DNA of 64,000 nucleotides from Parcubacteria group bacterium (GTDB lineage Bacteria > Patescibacteriota > Minisyncoccia > Phycocordibacterales > 21-14-all-47-15), in assembly GCA_016181845.1 (NCBI GenBank), contig JACOYO010000005.1:66845-130844 (forward strand), in the 5' to 3' direction. Below the pieces are notes generated by a model. That model ran no database searches. It saw nothing but the letters and a program-made list of their open reading frames with translations, and was not told the DNA's origin. Below, one piece after another: positions 7,816-55,620 of this stretch (position 1 is the stretch's first letter; each line of letters starts with the position of its first letter). A program made the translations under genes and the position numbers.

Positions 7816-7888
7816 GTCTTACAAAGTTGTCTTACAAAGGGTAGCCCTTTGTTAGGTAAACTGGTGCCTTCAAACTGGTGGTTGAAAA

Positions 7889-7909
7889 TTCGGCTTTCGC
7901 ATAGCCGAA
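7889..7909. repeat. 21-nt hairpin repeat ttcggctttcgcatagccgaa, copy 1 of 3
   Basis: Identical sequence at 7889-7909, 7942-7962 and 29505-29525; 6-bp stem, 9-nt loop. Confidence 0.6.
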
Positions 7910-7938
7910 AATCTAGGCGAAAATAGAAAAGAATTGTC

Positions 7939-8757
7939 TCATTCGGCTTTCGCATAGCCGAATAACAAACATTTTTTGCATGGGCCACACCGGAGCGCCT
8001 CGCTCTGTCCGAAAAAATCGGGCGGACATACCATGTGTTTTTGTTTAAGCGAAAGCGATTTCCACCACGGCGCATCGGTTGGTTGTTCCAAATCTCTTCC
8101 GCGCAATTCATGCGACGGGAAAATCACCGACCCTTTTGGTAAATCGGGAATCACGTCCCCTTCCGTAGCCATAAAACAAATGCGAAAACCGAATTGATTG
8201 TGGCACGTCATCGCTTCGTTGAAATTATCTCTGTCTGCAGAAAGATTCACGGCAATGTTCCGCAAACCATGAAGCGTTTCTGAAAAATGAAACGACCGCG
8301 TGTAAATCCAATGACGCACGTCGGGAGTTCTAATCACCACGGCGCGTATAAACCATGCGTACTCCATGGAAAAAATGTCGCCAGACACATGCCAGCGGAA
8401 ACCTCCTCTTTTGCAACGCGAAGCAATCCACTCGACGAAAGCAAGTATGGTTATGGCTGTTTCGTACCCGCAAGAGAGCACCTGATGAATTGCCGCGCTA
8501 TTGCGACGATACATCCTATACATTTCAGGTTCTGCATCCTCTAAGCGATTGACATAGCACACACTCTCGCATATCGGCGTCTTATGCGGACAATCCGTTT
8601 TGTGCAATAAAGAAAACGCATTTGCTGACGGTCGTTCAAAAGAGCCGTTTTCGGCTGTGATTTTGCCATTACCGTCAAACCAAAACACGCGTTCTCTGCC
8701 GCCGTACTGATAAGCCACCTCAAGCGAGCTTAAGACAAACTTCGTTTGATTAGCCAT
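7939..8757 (-). CDS. hypothetical Cys-rich protein (CPHKTPICESVC N-terminal cluster; C-terminal CPPD...CGPCKKC)
   Basis: 272-aa ORF with conserved-looking cysteine clusters at both ends; no family recognised with confidence. Confidence 0.5.
   Translation of the reverse strand: MANQTKFVLSSLEVAYQYGGRERVFWFDGNGKITAENGSFERPSANAFSLLHKTDCPHKTPICESVCYVNRLEDAEPEMYRMYRRNSAAIHQVLSCGYETAITILAFVEWIASRCKRGGFRWHVSGDIFSMEYAWFIRAVVIRTPDVRHWIYTRSFHFSETLHGLRNIAVNLSADRDNFNEAMTCHNQFGFRICFMATEGDVIPDLPKGSVIFPSHELRGRDLEQPTDAPWWKSLSLKQKHMVCPPDFFGQSEALRCGPCKKCLLFGYAKAE
7942..7962. repeat. 21-nt hairpin repeat ttcggctttcgcatagccgaa, copy 2 of 3 (overlaps the 3' end of the 272-aa gene)
   Basis: Exact repeat. Confidence 0.6.
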
Positions 8758-10837: not shown

Positions 10838-10950
10838 AAAACGCAAAATGTAAATCGAAAAATGCAAAACAACATCGTAAAGTTTAAAATATTTTGAATT
10901 TTAAATTGTTGTTTTGCATTTTTAGTTTTTAGTTTTTAGTTTCTTTATTT
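10838..10950. repeat. divergent member of the ~85-bp intergenic hairpin repeat family (aaaatgcaaaac...gttttgcatttt arms)
   Basis: Palindromic arms shared with copies at 42926, 43552, 44033, 48676 and 51346. Confidence 0.45.
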
Positions 10951-26202: not shown

Positions 26203-28137
26203 CTATGTTGTTTGTGGGTCAAGGTTTAAAAATTCTTCGCGTTTTTTCGGCATAATGCCATTTGCAAGCAAAATTTTTTCAAACGCTTCGTGTTCAATGG
26301 TTTCAACAGCGACCAGTTCTTTTGCAATCGCGTCAAGCGCGCCGCGGTGCGCTCTCAATATCTGCTCCGCTTTTCCGAGCGCCTCACTCATAATACGCGC
26401 GACTTCCGCGTCTATTTCAGCAGAAACTTTTTCTGAATATTCATGCTCGCCGACACCTTTGCCGAAAATAGCTTTCCCGCCCGGCTCTTCAAGCGCCACC
26501 GGCCCCATTTTTTCCGACATGCCGTACTTGGTCACCATATCGCGCGCGAGCGCAGTGGATACCTGCAAATCATTTGACGGTCCGGTTGTAAGGTCTCCAA
26601 AAATCATACGCTCCGCGGCGTAGCCTCCGAGCGATACGGCGATGTCGTCAAGAAATTCTTTTTTGCTCTGCATCTTTTTGTCTTCAAAAGGCAGTTTGAG
26701 CGTGTAGCCAGCCGCGCGGCCGCGGGAAATAATCGTGATTTTGTGCACCGGGTCGGCATACGGCAAGAGAGAAGCGGCGAGCGCGTGCCCCGCCTCATGG
26801 TACGCGGTAATTTCTTTTTCTTTTTTTGAGAGGAGGTGGCTTTTGCGCTCGGGCCCCAACATTACTTTTTCTATAGAGCGGATAAGGTCAAATTGGCTGA
26901 CCTTTTTCCTGCTCTCCCGCGCCGCAAGAATCGCGCCTTCGTTCATAAGCGAATAGAGGTCGGCGCCGGAAAACCCCGGCGTGCGCTCCGCGATAATGCG
27001 CAAATTTACATCTTCCGCAAACGGCTTTTTGTCCGCATGGATTTTCAAAATTTCCTCGCGGTCGTTAATATCAGGAATATCAATCACCACGCGCCGGTCA
27101 AAACGCCCAGGACGAAGAAGCGCCGGGTCAAGCACGTCTGGACGATTGGTCGCCGCAATGACAATCACTTTTTCCGCCGGCTCAAAGCCGTCCATTTCAA
27201 CCAAAATCTGATTGAGCGTCTGCTCGCGCTCATCGTTGCCACCGCCGAGCCCCACTCCGCGCGATCGACCGACCGCATCTATTTCGTCAATAAAAATAAT
27301 CGCTGGAGCGGCTTTTTTCGCAAGCTGGAAAAGGTCCCGCACGCGAGAAGCTCCAACTCCGACAAACATTTCCACAAATTCAGAACCTGAAATGGAAAAA
27401 AATGGCACTCCCGCCTCCCCCGCCACCGCGCGGGCAAGCAACGTCTTTCCCGTCCCAGGCGCGCCCATCAAAAGCACTCCCTTCGGAATCCGCGCTCCGA
27501 TGTCCAAAAATTTTTTCGGATTTTTCAAAAAGTCAACAATCTCCACCAATTCTTCTTTTGCCTCTTTTGCTCCGGCGACATCCTTAAACGTCACCCGCTG
27601 GCTTTTATCGGCGGGGTCTATAATCCGCGCTTTTGACTGTCCGAAGGTAAATGCCTGCATGCCAGCGCCTTTCACCTGCCGCGATATCATCCAGAAAAAG
27701 AGAAGCACAAAAACAATTGGGATAATAAACGGCAGCGCGTTCAAAAGAAAGAAACCGATGCCGCCCGGGCTCTTAACCTCAATGGAAACCGCGTGCATTT
27801 GCGCAGGTGTAACCCCATAATTCGTGAGCGTTTCGGAAAGAGAGCTCTCCGTTTCTTTGCGTGATGTTTTTTCCGAACCGTCTGTAAATGCCGCGGTCAA
27901 CTTTTCTGCTTCTACGACAACGCCGGTAACACTGCCTTCAACAATTGATTGCGCCAATTCTGAAATTGAAATTTCCGGTGTTTGCTTGCGTTCTTTCACC
28001 ACAAAAGAATAGAGCATGATGATGAGCGCGAAGAATATGAGCGTGCTCAACAGGTTGCTCAAGAACTGCCACCCTGACGGAGCATCCTTTTTTCCCCCGC
28101 CTGCTTTTTTATTTTTTTGTTTTGGAAATAGGTTCAT
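26203..28137 (-). CDS. ftsH: ATP-dependent zinc metalloprotease FtsH
   Basis: AAA Walker A GPPGTGKT, SRH, HEAGH zinc motif; two N-terminal TM segments. Confidence 0.9.
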
Positions 28138-28225
28138 ATTGTAAAATAGTTATACCATAATAGCGGAAAACAGGCAAAAGCCAATCCATCTGATACAATA
28201 TAATTGTTAATTGCAAAACTCGCTC

Positions 28226-28345
28226 TGAATCATAGTTTTTGAGAGACATTGCGGACCCCGACGATATTGTCGGGGGAGCATAGCATCCGCCCTGGGCGGA
28301 ATGCGTGTCTATCAAAAATTGATGATGAAGAAGAGTTTTGCAATA
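28226..28345. repeat. ~120-nt conserved structured element, copy A (second copy at 46853-46975)
   Basis: About 85% identity to copy B over about 120 nt. Terminal inverted repeat tttttgagagaca / tgtctatcaaaaa; conserved hairpin ccccgacgata(t/c)tgtcggggg; internal hairpin differs completely in sequence but is base-paired in both copies. Confidence 0.55.
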
Positions 28346-28365
28346 TAACAATACACCAATTTTGT

Positions 28366-28806
28366 ATGACGCTGATTATAAACAAAAAGGCTCATTTTAA
28401 TTATGAGCTCATGGAAAAGTTTGAAGCTGGCATGTCCCTCTTCGGCTTGGAAGTAAAATCCTTGAAAAAAAATCAGGGGTCCCTTTTGGGCGCGCATGTC
28501 ATAGTGCGCGGCGGCGAGGCATACATCGTCGGCATGCACATTCCTCCCTACCAGCCAAACAACACGCCAAAAGAGTACGACCCGGACCGCACGCGACGGC
28601 TTTTGCTTACTCAAAAAGAATTGGGCGAGCTTGCGGGCGCCGAAGCGCAAAAGGGGTTGACAATCGTGCCGATTTCAGTGTATAGTAAAGGCAGAAAATT
28701 GAAACTTCAAATCGCCATCGCGCGCGGAAAAAAGAAATACGATAAACGAGAAACTTTAAAAAAACGCGACGCGGAGCGAGAAATAGCAAGAACCTTAAAA
28801 AATTGA
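28366..28806 (+). CDS. smpB: SsrA-binding protein SmpB
   Basis: LIINKKAHFNYELMEKFEAGMSLFGLEVKSLK...; start at ATG 28366. Confidence 0.85.
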   Translation: MTLIINKKAHFNYELMEKFEAGMSLFGLEVKSLKKNQGSLLGAHVIVRGGEAYIVGMHIPPYQPNNTPKEYDPDRTRRLLLTQKELGELAGAEAQKGLTIVPISVYSKGRKLKLQIAIARGKKKYDKRETLKKRDAEREIARTLKN

Positions 28807-28892: not shown

Positions 28893-29299
28893 GGGGATGA
28901 TCGGCTTTGACAGTTGATTGGCCCTTGTCATGCGCAAAGCAAGCATGTTCGCTCATCTTGTAAATCCGCGCGAACAACCAATAGATGCAAATTCTATTTC
29001 AAAGCGAGTCGCATCGCCATTCGTGACGATAAACGGCTTCGCCTTTGCTCGAGCGTAATTAATCGCACGAGCCATCCGATACGCGGACTCCTGATAGGCG
29101 TTTAGGGTGTCATATACATCAGGATAGAAATAGCGGACGCTTCGCCGCGGTTTCAAAACCAAAGAAGCTCGGCCTGTACGTATTTCGTTTGCTTCCGACC
29201 GTACAGGCTCAAATTCACTTCGGTGAAACAAAGCAAACTATCTTTGTAGACACATCCGAGGAAATCATTTGGACCCGGGTTCGATTCCCGGCATCTCCA
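28893..29299 (+). ncRNA. ssrA: tmRNA (ssrA), ~407 nt
   Basis: Directly downstream of smpB. 5' end GGGGAUGAUCGGCUUUGACAG resembles the tmRNA 5' consensus; the 3' end has a tRNA-like T-arm CCCGGGUUCGAUUCCCGG and acceptor CAUCUCC-A pairing with 5' GGGGAUG. A candidate tag frame GCA AAU UCU ... GCU CGA GCG UAA (ANSISKRVASPFVTINGFAFARA) is uncertain. Confidence 0.7.
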
Positions 29300-29315
29300 T
29301 TCGTAAAAACATTAG

Positions 29316-29486: not shown

Positions 29487-29504
29487 CCTCATTCGACTTT
29501 CTTA

Positions 29505-29525
29505 CTCGGCTTTCGCATAGCCGAA
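29505..29525. repeat. 21-nt hairpin repeat (c)tcggctttcgcatagccgaa, copy 3 of 3
   Basis: Matches 7889-7909 and 7942-7962. Confidence 0.6.
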
Positions 29526-29531
29526 TTTCCT

Positions 29532-31729: not shown

Positions 31730-31767
31730 ATTACCAATTTTATAGTTAACTTACACCGCACCTAACA

Positions 31768-31795
31768 AGCTAAAAAGCTAAAACCTAACAAGCTT
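31768..31795. promoter_or_regulatory. motif aaaagctaaaacctaacaagct (tandem partial repeats) immediately upstream of rplT; also present twice, inverted, upstream of adk (40040-40132)
   Basis: Direct sequence comparison. Confidence 0.35.
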
Positions 31796-35819: not shown

Positions 35820-38582
35820 TTATTTCCTATACTTTTTCATAATCTCCGCTTCCACTTCATTTCGGTCCCGCCCGTATTTTTGATACGAATGTTCTTTGAC
35901 CCGAGTGATTTGTTCTGATTGTCCAGCTTCAAACGATGCCGTTTCAATATTAAACGGTTTTGATGGCTGTCCATTCGCTAAAAGTTTCAGATATGCGTTT
36001 CGATTATCAAGTTTCATGATATCTTCCGCGGTAAACGTCGGCGCAAATTGCTTTGCCAGATATTCGGCGTCGTCTGCCCCCACGCGAAACACAGCAAGCG
36101 AACCGACGTTTCCAAAGACCGCATTTTTTATTTTTTCATCCAGCTGGGCGATAAATTGATTGGCAATCGTGAGCGAGAGCCGATACTTGCGCGCCTCCGA
36201 AAGAATCGTGGCAATCGAATCCGTGGTAATATTTTGAAACTCATCAATGTAGAGAAAGAAATCGGCCGGTTTCGAGCGAAGCACGTCAACACGCGACAGC
36301 GCCGCCATCAAAATCTTGCCGACGATAATCAATCCGATTAAATTGGAGTTGATATCGCCCAATCGCCCTTTTGATAAGTTTACGAGAAGTATTTTACGCT
36401 CGTCCATAATCTGCCTGAAGTTAAACGCCGAGTGCTGTTGCGCCACAATTGGCCGCATGATGTCATTTGCCAAAAAGACGTCAAACTTGCTCGTGATATA
36501 AGGCACAATATTGGCAAGCGCCCCTTCCCCGCCCGCCTTCTCGGCAATGTCCGTCCAAAACTGTGTGACGACCGGATTTTTTGAGCGTGAAAGTTTCAGC
36601 GCCCGAAATGCTGTGTCTGCAAGCACGCGCGACACGTCAAGAAGCGTTGAGCCGCTCTCGGGATCTTCAATCACGAGCATCGTGGCATTTCTAAAATACT
36701 GCTCAAACATCGGCCCCATTGATTCCGGTACCGCGCCGTACAATTTTTGAAAAATACTGAAGAGCTCATTGACCACGAATGTTTTCTGTTCAGGGAAACG
36801 GGCGTCATATTCAAGCATGTTAAGCCCCATCGGACGCGCCGTCGCCCCCGGGTCAAAATAGATGACATCGTTCATACGATGTTCCGGTATGCGAGAGAGC
36901 ACATCTTCAATATCAGAGCCATGCGGGTCAATCATGCACACCCCATTGCCAGCGACGATATCCTGCGCAATCATATTTTTTAGAAGCGTGGTTTTGCCGG
37001 TTCCTGTCTGTCCGATAACATAGAGATGCCGCATTCGGTCTTCATCCGCAAAATGAATGTCAGTTTCAATATTTCTATAACGATTTGACCCGAGCACCAC
37101 CCCTTCGCGCGAGAGCGTCATTGGCGCCGGAGCGCTCCCCGCTTTTGCTTCTTTCAATTCGCGTGATGTCGTTCCCGTAACCGGAAAATGAAAGAGCGTA
37201 GTCAATTCTTTGATGTTCAGCGGAAAATTATGTTCGTCTGAAAAAAGGCGGTATGAAAATCGGTGCAATAGGGCGCGAAGTACTTCTTTTTTTACCCGCT
37301 CAAACTTGATGCCGTTGCCGCGTGTTTCCGAAAATTGATTGAATGACGATTCAAGTTCGGAAAGAATATCTTTGGCGCGGCTTTCCGTGCCTGCCGACGC
37401 GATAATGCGGATATTGGCTCCCAAAATATGGCTTCCGATTTTTGCTTCAATATGTTTAATCGCTTCTTCATCAATTTTGTGAGGTTCAAGCGGGACCGCG
37501 TTGCCATGAATATCTTTTTTCGGCAAGTCGCCGCCAAACACAAGCTCTTTAACCGCCTTCCCGAACCCGCCGGCAAACCCTTCCGGCATATCAACCGCTT
37601 TTTTGACCGGCACTCCTTTTTTTACTTTGTCTAAAATAAACGAGTAGCGTTTAATGTAATAATCGGCAATCGGCGCAAGCACTATCTGCACCGCGGCTCC
37701 TTCGCCGGTTTTTTTAATTTTTGAAAATGAATTGAGTAGCGCCGAAAGCGGGTCGCTGTCAAACGCTTCGTATGTCTTGAGCGAAAGCGCCGGAGAAAAA
37801 GCTGGCGCCGCGTACGACGCGGCAGACGCGCCGTTTTCAACAAAAATGTTATAGTCGTTTGGATTTTCTTTGAGCGTGGCGCGCGGGAACGCCGCCAAAA
37901 GCTGTTTCTCAAACAAATCAGCTTTCGTATCGGGTACACCGGCATAAAAAATCATATCCTCGCTTTCTCCGGAAATAGCGAGCTCAAGCGTAAAAGACCG
38001 CTTCCATTTTTCCGCGCTCTTTTCGTCTGTGTCTGCCACCGAAAGCATGCCTGCATAAAATTGCGCCATCGTGGTCACCATTTCTTTGAATTGTTTCTCT
38101 GATTCTTCCGGCGCCGATTGCGGAAGCGTGATTTCAAAAAGCTTCATGTGGAGCGCGCGCAAAAGCTCTTCTCGATTGACGCCATCGGTGTATCCTGCTT
38201 TGATATACTGAACCAAAAAACGATGGAAGTCGTCGTCAATGTGCGGATTGGAGAGCCGCTCCACTACAGAGAGCGCGTTTTTTATGCCATTTTCAAGCAT
38301 GATTCCAAAGAGTTCATTCATTTGCTCATCGTGCGATTCGGGAGCCAAATCAAGCGCGATTTTTTCGGCTTCATACGCTTTCATCGCATGCCCAGACGCC
38401 AGCACTTCTTCGGATTTCTTTTTGCCATATTCGCGCACCGGCAAAACGGCCGCGTGCTCGCGTTCATGCGAGGCCGCTTCTGCATCAAGTTCTTTCTCGT
38501 GCCGCGCTATTTCACGGCGCAAAAAAACCACTTCTTCTTCCGGAGTTTTGAATTTTGGCATTTCACCTTGAAATGTTTCCAT
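35820..38582 (-). CDS. large P-loop ATPase with VirD4/TraD/TrwB-like (type IV coupling protein, TraG-D_C-type) C-terminal half and ~440-aa coiled-coil-rich N-terminal region of unknown function
   Basis: GQTGTGKTTLLKN Walker A followed by MIDPHGS; LYIDEFQNI Walker B-like; RKYRLSLTIANQ...L motifs of coupling-protein family. Confidence 0.55.
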   Translation of the reverse strand: METFQGEMPKFKTPEEEVVFLRREIARHEKELDAEAASHEREHAAVLPVREYGKKKSEEVLASGHAMKAYEAEKIALDLAPESHDEQMNELFGIMLENGIKNALSVVERLSNPHIDDDFHRFLVQYIKAGYTDGVNREELLRALHMKLFEITLPQSAPEESEKQFKEMVTTMAQFYAGMLSVADTDEKSAEKWKRSFTLELAISGESEDMIFYAGVPDTKADLFEKQLLAAFPRATLKENPNDYNIFVENGASAASYAAPAFSPALSLKTYEAFDSDPLSALLNSFSKIKKTGEGAAVQIVLAPIADYYIKRYSFILDKVKKGVPVKKAVDMPEGFAGGFGKAVKELVFGGDLPKKDIHGNAVPLEPHKIDEEAIKHIEAKIGSHILGANIRIIASAGTESRAKDILSELESSFNQFSETRGNGIKFERVKKEVLRALLHRFSYRLFSDEHNFPLNIKELTTLFHFPVTGTTSRELKEAKAGSAPAPMTLSREGVVLGSNRYRNIETDIHFADEDRMRHLYVIGQTGTGKTTLLKNMIAQDIVAGNGVCMIDPHGSDIEDVLSRIPEHRMNDVIYFDPGATARPMGLNMLEYDARFPEQKTFVVNELFSIFQKLYGAVPESMGPMFEQYFRNATMLVIEDPESGSTLLDVSRVLADTAFRALKLSRSKNPVVTQFWTDIAEKAGGEGALANIVPYITSKFDVFLANDIMRPIVAQQHSAFNFRQIMDERKILLVNLSKGRLGDINSNLIGLIIVGKILMAALSRVDVLRSKPADFFLYIDEFQNITTDSIATILSEARKYRLSLTIANQFIAQLDEKIKNAVFGNVGSLAVFRVGADDAEYLAKQFAPTFTAEDIMKLDNRNAYLKLLANGQPSKPFNIETASFEAGQSEQITRVKEHSYQKYGRDRNEVEAEIMKKYRK

Positions 38583-40039: not shown

Positions 40040-40132
40040 ACCCTATGAGCTTGTTAGCTTCTTAGGTTTTAGCTTTTTAAAAAATTATTTAATGAACCTA
40101 AAAAGCTAATAAGCTAAAACCTAACAAGCTCG
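40040..40132. repeat. inverted pair of the aagctaaaacctaacaagct motif between secY and adk
   Basis: agcttgttagcttcttaggttttagcttttt and aaaaagctaataagctaaaacctaacaagct are mutual inverted repeats; the same motif occurs at 31768-31795. Confidence 0.4.
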
Positions 40133-42918: not shown

Positions 42919-42925
42919 ATAATGA

Positions 42926-43008
42926 AAAATTAAAAACGCAAAACGAAAAGCGCAAAGGAAACGGTGCTGAATTTTGTTTTTAGTTTTTCGTTTTGCATTT
43001 TACGTTTT
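42926..43008. repeat. ~85-bp intergenic hairpin repeat, copy between rplF and rplR
   Basis: aaaaacgcaaaacgaaaagcgcaaaggaaacggtgctgaattttgtttttagtttttcgttttgcattttacg; arms aaaacgcaaaacgaaaa / ttttcgttttgc(a/g)tttt form a ~17-bp stem. Confidence 0.7.
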
Positions 43009-43544
43009 TACCCGACCGTCTTCTTCCCTTGCTTCCTTCTAATCACTTCGTTTTCATACCGAATGCCTTTGCCTTTATACGGCTCAGGTTTTTTGTAAGC
43101 GCGTATAGTCGCGGCAAATTGCCCGACCAATTCCTTGTCAATTCCGCTCACGGTAATTGTATTCTTTTCAATCACCGCCGAAACACCTTCCGGAATCCGC
43201 ACCAATACCGGATGCGAAAAGCCGAGTGCTAATTTCAAATCCTTTCCGGCAAGTTCCGCGCGGAAACCGACTCCTTCTATCAATAATTTTTTAGCAAAAG
43301 GACGGTTAACTCCCTCTATCATATTTTTGATGTGCGCCATGGTGGTGCCCCACATCATTTTTGTTTGTATTGAAGCATTCGACGGAGCCGCTTTTATTTC
43401 ATTGCCTTCTATGTGAACTGAAACTCGGTCGGCAAAACGCTTTGAAAGTTCTCCTTTCGGGCCTTTCACGGTCACCGAATTGCCACTGACAGTTACAGTG
43501 GTTTTGTCTGGAATAGTAAGTATTTGTTTGCCAATTCTGCTCAT
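43008..43544 (-). CDS. rplF: 50S ribosomal protein L6
   Basis: MSRIGKQILTIPDKTTVTVSGNSVTVKGPKGEL... Confidence 0.9.
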   Translation of the reverse strand: MSRIGKQILTIPDKTTVTVSGNSVTVKGPKGELSKRFADRVSVHIEGNEIKAAPSNASIQTKMMWGTTMAHIKNMIEGVNRPFAKKLLIEGVGFRAELAGKDLKLALGFSHPVLVRIPEGVSAVIEKNTITVSGIDKELVGQFAATIRAYKKPEPYKGKGIRYENEVIRRKQGKKTVG

Positions 43545-43551
43545 AATAATA

Positions 43552-43630
43552 AATTAAAAACGCAAAACGAAAAGCGCAAAGAAAACGGTGCTGAATTTTG
43601 TTTTTAGTTTTTCGTTTTGCATTTTACGTT
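43552..43630. repeat. ~85-bp intergenic hairpin repeat, copy between rpsH and rplF
   Basis: Near-identical to copy at 42926. Confidence 0.7.
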
Positions 43631-43636
43631 GTTATA

Positions 43637-44023
43637 CTACCAAATCTGAAAAAGCACTTCGCCGCCGACTTTCTCCGCGCGCGCTTCTTTATCGGAGAGT
43701 ATCCCTTTCGGCGTTGAGAGCACGCTCATGCCATATCCCTGTCTTACGGAAGAAAGTTCACGAAATCCTTTGTACGCGCGCTGGGATAATTTTGATACCC
43801 GTTTTGCCCCATGAATACGCGGCGATGTCCCGACATACGCAAGTTCAATAACAATCAATTTGCGCGCTTTTTTGCCAAGTATGTCAGCTGATTTTATGTA
43901 TCCTGCTTTGGCAAGCGCGAGAGCAATGGCATATTTCAATTTTGAATACGAAACCTGCACCGACGGTTTCCCGACGAGTCCGGCATTTTGTATGTGCGTG
44001 AGCATGTTTGCGATTTGGTCCAT
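43637..44023 (-). CDS. rpsH: 30S ribosomal protein S8
   Basis: MDQIANMLTHIQNA... canonical S8. Confidence 0.9.
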   Translation of the reverse strand: MDQIANMLTHIQNAGLVGKPSVQVSYSKLKYAIALALAKAGYIKSADILGKKARKLIVIELAYVGTSPRIHGAKRVSKLSQRAYKGFRELSSVRQGYGMSVLSTPKGILSDKEARAEKVGGEVLFQIW

Positions 44024-44032
44024 AATAATAAA

Positions 44033-44110
44033 TTAAAAATGCAAAACGAAAAGCGCAAAGGAAACGGTGCTGAATTTTGTTTTTAGTTTTTCGTTTTGCA
44101 TTTTACGCTT
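44033..44110. repeat. ~85-bp intergenic hairpin repeat, copy between rpsZ and rpsH
   Basis: Near-identical to copy at 42926. Confidence 0.7.
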
Positions 44111-44113
44111 TTA

Positions 44114-44299
44114 TTACCAGCTTGATTTTCTTATTCCTGGAATTTTGCCTTCATTGGCAAGTTCGCGGAAACAAATACGGCACATATCAAAAGCACGCAT
44201 GTAACCGCGCTTCCTTCCGCACCGAAAACACCGGCGCACGATTCTTGAGCTCCATTTCGGTTTCTTTTGCGAACGCGCTATAACTGATGTTTTTGCCAT
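44114..44299 (-). CDS. rpsZ: 30S ribosomal protein S14 type Z (zinc-binding, 61 aa)
   Basis: [17 protein letters not shown]...[23 protein letters not shown] (CxxC...CxxC). Confidence 0.85.
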
Positions 44300-46769: not shown

Positions 46770-46808
46770 AAAAATCGCCTCTTTTTGGGCGAGGCGATTT
46801 TTTGTTGC
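46770..46808. terminator. bidirectional terminator aatcgcctc-tttttggg-cgaggcgatt flanked by A/T runs
   Basis: 10-bp stem; lies between the conserved ~120-nt element (in the groEL 3' region) and the glycosylase start. Confidence 0.5.
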
Positions 46809-46852
46809 AAGTCTTCAGTTTTGAGATTTGACTATGGAATGACGAAACTCTC

Positions 46853-46975
46853 TGAAATCATAGTTTTTGAGAGACATTGCGGACCCCGACGATACTGTCG
46901 GGGGAGCATAGCAAATTTTGCTCGCAAGCAAAATTATGCGCGTCTATCAAAAACTCATGATGAAGAAGAGTTTCG
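46853..46975. repeat. ~120-nt conserved structured element, copy B (copy A at 28226-28345), just downstream of the groEL stop
   Basis: See copy A; the variable internal hairpin here is aattttgctcgcaagcaaaatt, versus tccgccctgggcgga in copy A. Confidence 0.55.
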
Positions 46976-46998
46976 TAATTCAAGAGTTTTAAGATTTT

Positions 46999-48675
<1,677 letters not shown>

Positions 48676-48760
48676 TTAAAAACGTAAATCGAAAAACGCA
48701 AAAGAAACGATGCTAAATTTTAATTTCATTTTTCGTTTTTCGTTTTGCATTTTACGCTAT
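48676..48760. repeat. ~85-bp intergenic hairpin repeat, diverged copy between groES and groEL
   Basis: aacgtaaatcgaaaaacgcaaaag...tttttcgttttgcattttacg. Confidence 0.6.
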
Positions 48761-49062
48761 TTAATGATCGCCAATAATGAATCCTCGCGGATAATATAGT
48801 ATTCTTCCCCGTCAATTTTTACTTCATCCGGACCATATTTTGAAAAAACGACCATGTCTCCTTTTTTTACCTGAAGCGGAATAAAAACGCCGTCATCATT
48901 TCGCTTGCCTTCTCCCACGGCAATCACTTTCCCATGCTCCGGTTTTTCTTTGTCAACGGTATCGGGAATAATGATTCCCGATTGTGTTTTTGTTTTTTCA
49001 GGAGTCGTTGGCTTCACCAGCACGCGGTCTCCCAAAGGAATAATACTATGTGTTGTGCTCAT
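48757..49062 (-). CDS. groS: co-chaperonin GroES
   Basis: MSTTHSIIPLGDRVLVKP...GKVIAVGEG...; start at Met20 of the track ORF. Confidence 0.9.
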   Translation of the reverse strand: MSTTHSIIPLGDRVLVKPTTPEKTKTQSGIIIPDTVDKEKPEHGKVIAVGEGKRNDDGVFIPLQVKKGDMVVFSKYGPDEVKIDGEEYYIIREDSLLAIIK

Positions 49063-49230
49063 GATATTTTTCTTGAAAATATATAAGGCGCGCGTCCTGA
49101 AACATAATTTGTGTTTCATCCGGCATGCCTACTTTAATAATGGCAAAATTATACTTTGTTGTAGAAAAAAAGCAAGTCCAAACGAATCGTTGACTTCCAT
49201 TCAAATTCTGCTATATTGATTGATAAGGTT

Positions 49231-51337: not shown

Positions 51338-51345
51338 TAAAGAGT

Positions 51346-51415
51346 AAAATGCAAAACGAAAAACTAAAAACAAAATTCAGCGTTACTTCTTTTGTGTTTT
51401 TCGTTTTACGTTTTT
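51346..51415. repeat. ~85-bp intergenic hairpin repeat, copy in inverted orientation between the SBP gene and rnj
   Basis: aaaatgcaaaacgaaaaactaaaaacaaaattcagcg... is the reverse complement of the loop region of copies 42926, 43552 and 44033. Confidence 0.65.
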
Positions 51416-51426
51416 AATTTATCATC

Positions 51427-53382
51427 ATGATACAACAAAACAAAGGGGCTTCTTATGCAAGAAGCGGAGATGGACATGGGCACGCGCCGCGACACCGCCG
51501 CCCATTTTCTCATCACTCACATCAACCAAACAAAAGTGACGCGGCAAAAAGCACGCCGCAAGCGCCAGCGTCTCAACACCCAAAACCGCGGCAAGGACAC
51601 GGCGGCAAGAGAGCGCCAGGCGGACGCGGTGGTCCGCGCAGAGAACAAAGAGAACGTCCGAGAACCTCTCGCCCTCATCTATCACAAAAAAATTGGGCTC
51701 CCGTTCCATCGCTTGAGAAAGACACTATGCGTATTATTCCGTTGGGCGGAGTGGAGGAAATCGGCAAAAACATCACCGCTTTTGAATACGGCAATGATAT
51801 TTTTGTCGTTGATATGGGCTTTCAATTCAGCGAAGACGATACTCCGGGGATTGATTATATTCTGCCCAACACAAAATACCTTGAGGAAAGAAAAGATAGG
51901 GTCCGCGCGGTGTTTATCACACATGGCCACCTGGACCATATCGGCGGTATCCCCTATCTTATGGAAAAAATCGGCAATCCGCCGATGTACGCAAGAAATT
52001 TTACAGCGCTGATGATAAAAAAGCGCCAGGAAGAATTTCCACACCTGCCGCCGCTTGACCTGCGTATCGTTGAAAGCGGAAATCGTCTAAAAATAGGCGG
52101 GCTCTTCGTCGGCTTCTTCGCTGTGACGCACGCCATCCCCGATTCAATGGGTATTATTTTTGAAACTCCGCATGGCGACGTGGTACACACAGGTGATATT
52201 CGTTTAGACCACATTGAAGGGCATGTATCGGAGATTGAAGAAGAAATATACGATTCGTTCAAAGATAGAAACGTGCTTGCTCTTCTTGCCGACTCAACAA
52301 ACGCCGAAAATCCGGGATTTTCTATTTCAGAAAAGGTGGTATACCAAAACATAGAAGACATCATCAAAAACACCAAGGGTCGCCTCATTTTATCAACATT
52401 CGCCTCGCAAGTTGAGCGCATGCTCAAGATGATTGAGATATCTGAAAAATACGGCAAAAAAATCGTCATTGAGGGACGGAGCATGAAAACTAATATTGAA
52501 GTAACGCGGGCCGCGGGACTTTTGAAAGTTGGCAAAGAATCTCTCATCACCGTTGAAGAAATGAGTCAATATCCTGAAAACAAACAAGTAGCGCTGGTTA
52601 CCGGCGCGCAAGGTGAAGAATTCGCGGCGCTTATGCGGATTGCGAATAAAACACATAAACATATCAAAATCTCTCCGCGAGATACTATCCTCATGTCTTC
52701 ATCAATCGTTCCAGGAAATGAACGAAACGTGCAAAAATTGAAAGACAACCTCTCGCGGCAAGGCGCTCATATTATTCATTATAAAAATTCCGATGTGCAT
52801 TCTTCCGGTCATGCCAACGGCGAAGAGCTCGCCTGGATTCATGCCAAAATACACCCGAAATTTTTTATTCCGATTCACGGATACCATTATATGCTCCGCG
52901 TGCATGCCGATATCGCAAAACGCATCGTCCATGAAGCGAATATCGTCATACCGGACAACGGCATGGTTATTGAAATTGCCAAAGGAGAAAAAATAGCGTC
53001 GCGCAAAGAAACAGCTCCATCAAATCCGATTTTGGTTGACGGTTTTTCTATAGGAGACGCGCAGGAAGTGGTATTGCGCGACCGCCAAATGCTTTCTCAA
53101 GACGGCATGTTTGTCGTAATTGCCTCTATAGATATTAGAACTGGAAAATTACGGAAATCGCCCGACATCATTTCCAGAGGGTTTGTCTATTTGCGAGAAT
53201 CACAAGAACTTCTCAAAGACGCGCGAAATGTGGTGAAAAGAACCATTGAAAAAACAACCGCGGGCATGAATCCTATCAATTTTGAGCATGTGAAAACTAC
53301 CCTCACCGATGACGTGTCCCGTTTCCTCTTCCAAAAAACAAACAAGCGCCCGATTGTCATACCGGTGCTTTTGGGAATATAA
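51427..53382 (+). CDS. rnj: ribonuclease J (beta-CASP MBL RNase), possibly with ~100-aa basic His/Pro/Arg-rich N-terminal extension
   Basis: MRIIPLGGVEEIGKNITAFEY...VFITHGHLDHIGGIPYL canonical RNase J; alternative start at 51730 (MRIIPLGG). Confidence 0.85.
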   Translation: MIQQNKGASYARSGDGHGHAPRHRRPFSHHSHQPNKSDAAKSTPQAPASQHPKPRQGHGGKRAPGGRGGPRREQRERPRTSRPHLSQKNWAPVPSLEKDTMRIIPLGGVEEIGKNITAFEYGNDIFVVDMGFQFSEDDTPGIDYILPNTKYLEERKDRVRAVFITHGHLDHIGGIPYLMEKIGNPPMYARNFTALMIKKRQEEFPHLPPLDLRIVESGNRLKIGGLFVGFFAVTHAIPDSMGIIFETPHGDVVHTGDIRLDHIEGHVSEIEEEIYDSFKDRNVLALLADSTNAENPGFSISEKVVYQNIEDIIKNTKGRLILSTFASQVERMLKMIEISEKYGKKIVIEGRSMKTNIEVTRAAGLLKVGKESLITVEEMSQYPENKQVALVTGAQGEEFAALMRIANKTHKHIKISPRDTILMSSSIVPGNERNVQKLKDNLSRQGAHIIHYKNSDVHSSGHANGEELAWIHAKIHPKFFIPIHGYHYMLRVHADIAKRIVHEANIVIPDNGMVIEIAKGEKIASRKETAPSNPILVDGFSIGDAQEVVLRDRQMLSQDGMFVVIASIDIRTGKLRKSPDIISRGFVYLRESQELLKDARNVVKRTIEKTTAGMNPINFEHVKTTLTDDVSRFLFQKTNKRPIVIPVLLGI

Positions 53383-55532: not shown

Positions 55533-55620
55533 GTTTACGAAGGTTCAGTTTACGAAGGTTCCTCCTTCGTTGTGGATAACTTTCAATTTACGAAGGTTCC
55601 TCCTTCGTTGTGGATAACTT
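55533..55620. repeat. tandem direct repeat, 2.5 x ~38 bp (tttacgaaggttcctccttcgttgtggataactt), each with hairpin acgaagg-ttcct-ccttcgt
   Basis: Read directly; lies between the stop of the 55619-56866 gene and the HAD promoter region. Confidence 0.6.

Follow-up and report, generated by a model that had tools for sequence, protein, structure and literature searches.

A putative family of short, folded insertion elements beside chaperonin and other genes in Patescibacteria

The window analysed here, a stretch of 64,000 nucleotides (64 kb) from a Parcubacteria group genome, contains the same strongly folding repeat twice, once between ftsH and smpB and once behind groEL. The original prediction offered a structured RNA or a MITE, and each of these proved half right: the repeat is MITE-like in its empty orthologous sites, its flanking repeat at one copy and its multi-copy status, but it is not a pure MITE. 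A pure MITE had been expected to lack homologues of conserved structure; the homologues found show a conserved, heavily covarying structure around an invariant junction. In our best reading, to which we give a probability of roughly one half, the repeat is a non-autonomous mobile element that is recognised as a folded single strand. With similar confidence, we assign its two copies in the window (A and B) to a family of short insertion elements, non-coding and to all appearance undescribed, of the Patescibacteria (CPR).

Both copies were found on the + strand, with all of the features described for them. Their predicted locations were right and their boundaries were too narrow, since the paired arms reach further: copy A, placed at 28226-28345, extends over 28204-28351 (148 nt, from sequence and fold), and copy B, placed at 46853-46975, over 46830-46984 (155 nt), between the groEL stop codon and the terminator. 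The terminal inverted repeat TTTTTGAGAGACA / TGTCTATCAAAAA was confirmed in the sequence, as were the hairpin CCCCGACGATA(T/C)TGTCGGGG (28256-28275 in A, 46884-46903 in B, + strand) and the conserved flanking stretch ATGATGAAGAAGAG (28322-28335 and 46957-46970, + strand). Copy A is made up of outer inverted-repeat arms, a k-turn-like internal loop, a stem termed P2 and a three-way junction. The core of this junction (P2, the hairpin-1 arm and the hairpin-2 arm) lies on the + strand at 28235-28319 in copy A and at 46863-46954 in copy B, scoring 74.6 bits (E = 5e-15) and 94 bits (E = 1.5e-19), respectively, with the R1 covariance model. A 45-nt core pattern has two exact matches in the window, compared with none in 100 shuffles.

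Copies A and B are 82.5% identical over 137 nt (BLAST). When one swapped hairpin is left out, identity rises to 98% (58 nt) and 89% (44 nt), and was elsewhere put at ~96-98%. The swapped part is the variable section of hairpin 2, which on the + strand reads TCCGCCCTGGGCGGA (TCCGCCC-TGG-GCGGA) at 28286-28300 in copy A, by A/B alignment, and AATTTTGCTCGCAAGCAAAATT (AATTTTGCT-CGCA-AGCAAAATT) at 46914-46935 in copy B, by blastn. The claim that one hairpin had been fully replaced and still paired in both copies is borne out by the A/B alignment and the folds. The outer stem also differs between A and B by two double, pair-preserving changes (GCAAAAC/GTTTTGC versus ACGAAAC/GTTTCGT). Compared with shuffled sequence, the folding of A and B gives z = -8.6 and -9.9 on the + strand and -6.3 and -8.4 on the - strand, and copy A folds at -73.4 kcal/mol on + versus -64.7 on -.

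The internal loop of copy A has, on the + strand, the C-stem / 3-nt loop / tandem G-A / NC-stem pattern of the Kt-7 kink-turn, with CUCU-GA-AUCAU (28223-28233) facing AUGAU-GAAGA-AGAG (28322-28335), and we take its loop sequence to be that of Kt-7. The short strand of copy B (46850-46861) has one extra A, and the section is absent from the other intact members (L027, L029, L036, L041, L050 and L060). At best, the loop may be a lineage-specific add-on rather than a feature of the family. Three further candidates were rejected: a short peptide, MMKKSF(A/V)I, which begins at the conserved ATGATGAAGAAGAG in the only ORF common to A and B and is absent from other members; an internal promoter-like TTGAGA-18-GATAYT, which falls in variable hairpin 1 and so is not conserved; and a likeness to 5S rRNA (CCGAAC, AUGCG), which gave no Rfam 5S score.

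Copy A lies between ftsH (26203-28137, - strand) and smpB (28366-28806, + strand), the latter being followed by the tmRNA gene (28893-29302, + strand), and the distances predicted from the neighbouring genes were correct (ftsH ATG at 28137 on the - strand, smpB ATG at 28366, groEL stop at 46999-47001). Two divergent promoters occupy the spacer. The smpB extended -10 box, TGATACAAT, is at 28191-28199 (+ strand), and takes the form TGCTACAAT, 10 nt before the smpB ATG, in three Logan contigs (L001-L003) whose SmpB is 93-94% identical. An ftsH promoter-like region is at 28149-28184 (- strand; TTGCCT-17-TATAAC, or TTGGCT-16-TATTAT by scan), conserved in L002 and L003 as TTGCCT-17-TATAAT. None of the three contigs has an element before smpB. 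L002 and L003 keep the ftsH-smpB arrangement and both promoters, with a spacer ~144 nt shorter than that of the window; L001 has a different gene upstream of smpB. Copy A is inserted between the smpB -10 box and the ATG, and therefore forms the smpB leader. A role as an ftsH 5' UTR element was rejected, as the ftsH promoter stands between ftsH and copy A. The suggested connection with heat-shock and quality-control genes is real for groESL and weak for ftsH, because copy A belongs to the leader of smpB and lies upstream of the promoter of ftsH. Flanking direct repeats at copy A are at chance level (679 of 2000 shuffles do as well). A separate small hairpin, TTCGGCTTTCGCATAGCCGAA, occurs three times in the window (7884-7910, 7937-7963 and 29500-29526; 81-93% identical), one copy being ~200 nt downstream of the tmRNA gene.

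Copy B lies downstream of groEL (46999-48666, - strand), which follows groES (48757-49119, - strand). Beyond it is the bidirectional intrinsic terminator of groEL (46770-46804; 46775-46792 by scan), and a comparable terminator is present after groEL in relatives. The copy is flanked by target-site-duplication-like direct repeats on the + strand, AGTTTTGAGATTT at 46817-46829 and AGTTTTAAGATTT at 46985-46997, which match at 12 of 13 positions, a value equalled by 1 of 2000 shuffles. The site is empty in four relatives with 94% identical GroEL (L023, L025, L026 and L027), where the groEL stop is 20-70 nt from the terminator with no element between, and where one roughly similar stretch is found but no flanking repeat pair. 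A further empty site directly after the groEL stop is seen in L065. The junction between groEL and the element is also present in a Logan contig of the same strain from an independent assembly (L028, GroEL 100% identical), which breaks off at the variable hairpin; the element is therefore no assembly artefact. Both L028 and L065 stop inside the element, as assemblies do at repeats, and so the element breaks short-read assemblies at groEL, a common marker gene. Hairpin 2 of copy B is nearly identical to that of L026/L027 (blastn, 94.6% over 37 nt). Copy B is thus a mosaic, sharing hairpin 2 with another genome (L027) and all else with copy A, which points to probable exchange between copies. 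Known control sites were also looked for here: a scan for intrinsic terminators found none inside the element, with U runs 13-20 nt past the stem, and the HrcA operator CIRCE (TTAGCACTC-N9-GAGTGCTAA) has no match with up to 3 mismatches in the 64 kb, the region upstream of groES included.

A search for homologues yielded further members with conserved structure. Six were found beyond A and B, five intact (four Parcubacteria-type and one from Peregrinibacteria) and one partial. BLAST of copy B against the loci of relatives identified an element in L026/L027 that fills the groES-groEL spacer, antisense to the operon. It keeps TTGCGGA, GAGCA(G/T)AGCA and ATGCG; its hairpin 1 is of equal size and unrelated sequence, and both strands of the k-turn-like section are missing. 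When the GTDB species representatives were scanned with a pattern of the junction alone, 22 matches appeared, 4 of them real: two copies in one MAG titled Saccharibacteria (L029 and L036), one in a Parcubacteria MAG (L041) and one in a Peregrinibacteria MAG (L050). Among groEL loci related to that of L041, L060 (GroEL 88% identical) has an intact element at the same site. L065 has a partial copy of the window type just past the groEL terminator, where the contig ends. In L061 (2082-2377), a decayed and rearranged type-1 element follows groEL. What is left of it is the P2 5' half with CCTTGCG and, ahead of the stop codon, the 3' flank GCGAGTGCGACAC; its interior has been replaced by other repeats that include TTCTGCG heptamers. 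In L065 (~1940-2001), it was also observed that an extended -10 box, TGATATAAT, directly abuts the end of the partial element after the groEL terminator, an arrangement that mirrors, on the opposite strand, that of copy A at the -10 box of smpB.

The members fall into two subtypes, of about 110-155 nt and about 200 nt. To the left of the junction domain (~75 nt), type-1 members L029, L036 and L041 share a further conserved domain, GTTTTTGAAGCATYCGCAGGAAAATWTGCA..hairpin..TTTTCCTGCTTAAGCGAG; its inner hairpin covaries, and CGAG is repeated on either side of P2. Intact type-1 copies are preceded by ATG-TAR-(A)GG in three of four cases, with TAT-TAG-TGTCG preceding L060. A conserved ORF upstream of these elements was considered and rejected, as the stop codons align and there is no common ORF. 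The flanks of A, B and L027 share no motif, and no flanking direct repeat is evident for L027.

Searches beyond these loci were largely empty. A 23-base exact core pattern built on A and B matched nothing in genome contigs or metagenome contigs; the k-turn-like motif pattern gave 19 metagenome matches, all due to chance and in coding sequence; the junction pattern gave 9 matches in viral contigs, all due to chance; and BLAST against phages and plasmids found no match to the element. A fuzzy regular expression and the covariance model, run over ~360 kb of window and locus sequence, revealed no further divergent copy except L060, and ~200 kb of sequence surrounding the member loci contained no other copy. 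The suggested comparison with Rfam was made for A, B, L027, L029, L036, L041 and L050 against Rfam 15, at gathering and permissive thresholds (E up to 5-10), and returned no relevant family for any of them. Literature searches found no description of such an element.

Each element is a long, imperfect hairpin centred on a three-way junction, and across the family this junction is the most constant part. Its invariant core can be written as C-UUGC-GGA-[hairpin 1]-GA-GCAG-A-GCA-[hairpin 2]-A-UGC-G, within a consensus made up of the closing stem P2; a hairpin-1 arm with UUGC/GCAG, a GGA/GA internal loop and a variable stem; a single-A linker; and a hairpin-2 arm with GCA/UGC, a bulged A and a variable stem. 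Approximately 24 positions of the junction do not vary among eight members, whose lineages bear the labels of three phyla. In the covariance-model alignment of these eight members (a seven-member version omits L060), 94.3% of cells hold standard pairs, compared with 69.7% in shuffled alignments and 54.9% in the best slid control, and 25 of 38 pairs have changed on both sides, compared with 17.4 and 12. None of 500 shuffles reaches the observed value on either measure; the counts lean towards structure, as the alignment was fitted to the model, and the hairpins are also obvious in folds of single sequences. RNAalifold independently predicts a matching junction fold. In hairpin 1, none of the 8 pairs is invariant and pairing is 100% in seven members (98.4% with L060), the length being 20 nt in five members across three unrelated sequences. 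Pairing of the outer arms is seen in A, B and L027; these arms show little conservation from member to member, differ wholly between subtypes and represent the least conserved part of the element. Hairpin loops are not conserved, and there are almost no unpaired nucleotides in the junction. This pattern suggests that the fold is under selection, with stems that may vary freely provided that pairing stays. Compensatory-looking changes in DNA palindromes can also arise in the absence of selection, through template switching.

Which strand carries the fold was judged from features that divide between the two. The core (+) strand is favoured by its pairs, its mismatches and its folding energy. It has 11 G-U cells versus 3 A-C cells, and 93.9% of its cells are paired versus 90.8% on the reverse (the latter by our own arithmetic from pair counts). 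In well-aligned members the remaining mismatches are purine-purine, with pyrimidine mismatches in addition in P2 of L050; nucleotides that are both unpaired and conserved are purines; and in 6 of 7 members this strand has the lower minimum free energy. The reverse strand has in its favour the UNCG-type loops that it forms in hairpin 2 of B, L027 and L050, and its transcription together with groEL, groES-groEL or argS in 8 of 10 loci. A further point for it is that no promoter for the core strand can be recognised at B, L041 or L060. Transcription runs along the core strand at copy A and along the reverse strand at copy B.

The positions of the elements are far from even. The bias can be assessed from six members found blind to groEL (A, B, L029, L036, L041 and L050). 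Three of these (B, L029 and L041) are directly 3' of the groEL stop; of the others, L036 directly follows the argS stop, A occupies the smpB leader and L050 is upstream of dprA. We estimate that each genome offers several hundred to about a thousand intergenic sites, and three of six members at a single gene then lie far outside what chance would give. When L027, L065 and the L041/L060/L061 lineage are counted, groESL has received independent insertions at least three times, in three different positions; L027, L065 and L060 came from inspecting groEL loci, and L060 is an orthologous copy of L041. In every groESL case, the core strand is antisense to groEL. The GC skew of the core strand is negative in 8 of 8 loci, a result confounded with groEL orientation.

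The spacers around these genes hold other repeats. In the window, heptamer-repeat palindromes of ~90-100 nt fill the spacers between cistrons, immediately before the start codons, and share the orientation of the genes (42919-43017, 43543-43641, 44022-44120, 48665-48763, 51339-51430 and 10839-10942, at the S8/L6/L18 genes, groEL, RNase J and a GH130 gene). Their arms are A-rich (AAAACGN units) and then T-rich, with no Shine-Dalgarno sequence visible. Similar palindromes with different heptamers occupy the spacers of relatives (TTAGCGT in L023, TAAGCTA in L025). The groES-groEL spacer has no element in L023, L025 or the window, and the L027 element replaces the palindromic spacer carried there by relatives. 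A 35-nt repeat, ACCTAAMAAGCTAAWAAGCTAAAACCTAACAAGCT, is present at 31760-31794 and 40096-40130 (94% identical), and its heptamer type equals that of the L025 groES-groEL spacer. A perfect-looking tandem duplication at 55544-55619, with a 38-nt unit (97% identical), contains the hairpin ACGAAGGTTCCTCCTTCGT.

Several hallmarks of MITEs are present in A and B and their relatives: the elements are short, non-coding and multi-copy (two in 64 kb, and two in the L029/L036 MAG), they have terminal inverted repeats, and filled and empty sites are found among relatives. Since the element is inserted, multi-copy, mosaic and gene-less, it would be mobile now or have been so recently, and, as it has no gene, we infer that it is moved in trans. 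No transposase or autonomous partner was found among 30 ORFs scanned in the 64-kb window. That the junction rather than the termini is most conserved, while the arms covary, points to recognition as a folded single strand. In the mechanism we propose, the mobilising enzyme would recognise a folded single strand (DNA or RNA), beyond the terminal inverted repeats, which could explain why the fold and junction are kept as stems and outer arms swap among copies. Insertion would be targeted to short untranslated stretches by strongly expressed genes, above all groES-groEL, always in one orientation. The co-transcribed element would then add a very stable structure to the smpB leader (A) or to the groEL 3' UTR (B), where any effect on smpB or groEL expression may be a by-product. 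Two ORFs of the window have similarities of another kind, one with a phage GP88 domain (7939-8757) and a 920-aa ORF with weak similarity to a type IV secretion coupling protein of the TraG/TrwB type (35820-38582); both may be what is left of mobile DNA in a region that otherwise holds housekeeping genes.

Comparison with known repeats helps to place this proposed element. Correia/NEMIS, ERIC, RUP and BOX elements are bacterial MITEs that form long hairpins and are transcribed together with adjacent genes; some of their variants contain internal insertions. The elements described here resemble them in being ~100-150 nt, non-coding, intergenic and multi-copy, with terminal inverted repeats and filled and empty sites, and in joining neighbouring mRNAs. 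They differ in that the conserved part is an internal three-way junction with covarying stems, and in their extreme groESL bias and fixed orientation; to our knowledge, the element has no parent IS. REP/BIME sequences (moved by RAYT, Y1 HUH transposases) and palindrome elements derived from IS200/IS605 are non-autonomous and are recognised as folded single-stranded DNA. REP-type elements show compensating changes, are located at 3' gene ends or between cistrons and have an orientation bias, being simple hairpins of 20-40 nt with a conserved GTAG head, and relatives of IS200/IS605 go in 3' of a fixed tetra- or pentanucleotide and do not duplicate the target. A conserved one-strand fold with compensating changes (25 of 38 pairs, 94% paired) is common to these families and the present one, which differs in its 90-nt three-way junction, in the 13-nt repeat at copy B and in that no Y1 transposase was seen among the window ORFs scanned. 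Integron attC sites are recombination sites set by a one-strand fold, some with three-way 'variable terminal structures'. They likewise have a one-strand fold of variable sequence and length, but here inspection by eye shows no R''/R' boxes (RYYYAAC / GTTRRRY), the core is invariant, and neither a cassette array nor an integrase is nearby. By analogy, the element seems closer to the logic of REP/RAYT, IS200/IS605 and attC than to that of a classical DDE MITE, though the copy-B repeat misfits those families.

Not all observations sit well with mobility. A clear flanking repeat is found at copy B only. L041 and L060 have intact elements at one site with a core that is 100% conserved and stems that have changed, which looks like selection in place; a selfish insertion would normally show none, barring a second hit at this site or homogenisation of the copies. 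Furthermore, host benefit explains at least three groESL insertions in one orientation as easily as target preference does.

These points lead to the strongest alternative, which we consider possible but doubtful: that the element works as an RNA linked to the chaperonin operon. It could be a cis structure in the groESL mRNA, formed by the reverse strand in the 3' UTR or between cistrons and setting mRNA stability, processing or termination. It could also be an sRNA from the core strand, convergent with groEL, the copies at smpB, argS and dprA then being duplications. Such an RNA would account for the association with groESL in both subtypes and in three lineages (as labelled in records), for an orientation that is fixed relative to groEL, for the retention of the orthologous L041 and L060 elements with compensated stems, and for the way in which the L027 element stands in for the palindromic groES-groEL spacer. 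Moreover, L041 and L060 show no canonical groEL terminator besides the element region, and the purine-rich unpaired nucleotides, the excess of G-U over A-C and the lower energy of the core strand are properties of RNA. However, close relatives have no element at these sites and apparently manage, and the different groESL positions, at least three, fit insertion better than a fixed regulatory design. The strands also conflict: A and B are transcribed on opposite strands, the core strand with the better RNA features lacks a recognisable promoter at B, L041 and L060, and the strand that is surely transcribed there has pyrimidine-rich loops. An RNA thermometer of the ROSE or FourU type does not fit elements that are 3' of or antisense to groEL, where no Shine-Dalgarno sequence or start codon is sequestered. 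A more daring proposal, which we hold to be somewhat less probable again, is that the junction is a functional module that has been repeatedly recruited to the CPR chaperonin operon, either as a new RNA (in the groEL 3' UTR or antisense) that controls groESL output in organisms for which this window shows no CIRCE operator, or as the recognition fold of a new structure-guided transposon, mediated by single-stranded DNA or RNA, that homes to groESL.

It is unlikely that the elements are ordinary MITEs with terminal inverted repeats, moved by a DDE transposase, in which the junction has no function and the changes derive from template-switch (quasipalindrome) mutation and recombination between copies. 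The terminal inverted repeats, the 13-bp repeat at copy B, the insertion polymorphism and the mosaic copies are what such elements would show, but ~24 junction positions have stayed invariant in eight members from three labelled phyla as their surroundings changed, the outer arms, where a DDE transposase would be expected to bind, are the least conserved part, and hairpin 1 holds its 20 nt in five members through three unrelated sequences.

Least probable are the readings as a self-cleaving ribozyme, as a riboswitch or as a guide-RNA module (box C/D-, TIGR- or IS110 bridge-RNA-like): a three-way junction with a conserved core, and CUGA and UGAUGA motifs in A and B with weak matches to C/D-box snoRNA models (E = 2.5-9), are set against the lack of any relevant Rfam score, even a weak one, in the members scanned, a junction so nearly fully paired that it leaves no space for a hammerhead-type core or ligand pocket, hairpin loops that are not conserved, a box C/D-like section that is missing from other intact members, and an element found alike in 5' UTRs, 3' UTRs and antisense contexts. 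IS110 bridge RNAs are located at the end of the recombinase gene, with guide segments in loops. The TIGR-Tas systems of CPR bacteria are tandem arrays of structured RNAs with box C/D-like motifs and guide segments in loops (PMC12045711). The host group and the box C/D-like motifs are thus shared with TIGR-Tas, but here there is no tandem array, copies are solitary beside ftsH, smpB, groEL, argS and dprA, no Nop-domain or IS110-type protein was present among the ORFs scanned, and a TIGR or box C/D relation was rejected on comparison with these arrays (PMC12045711).

The Patescibacteria have tiny genomes, few known mobile elements and almost no described regulatory RNAs. Within this group, an element that is supported by covariation, absent from Rfam and present in lineages labelled Parcubacteria, Saccharibacteria and Peregrinibacteria would be either a new RNA motif or a new structure-dependent mobile repeat. 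Its orientation-fixed insertion at groESL may provide a handle on how the most abundant chaperone is tuned, or on how a non-autonomous element chooses its target.
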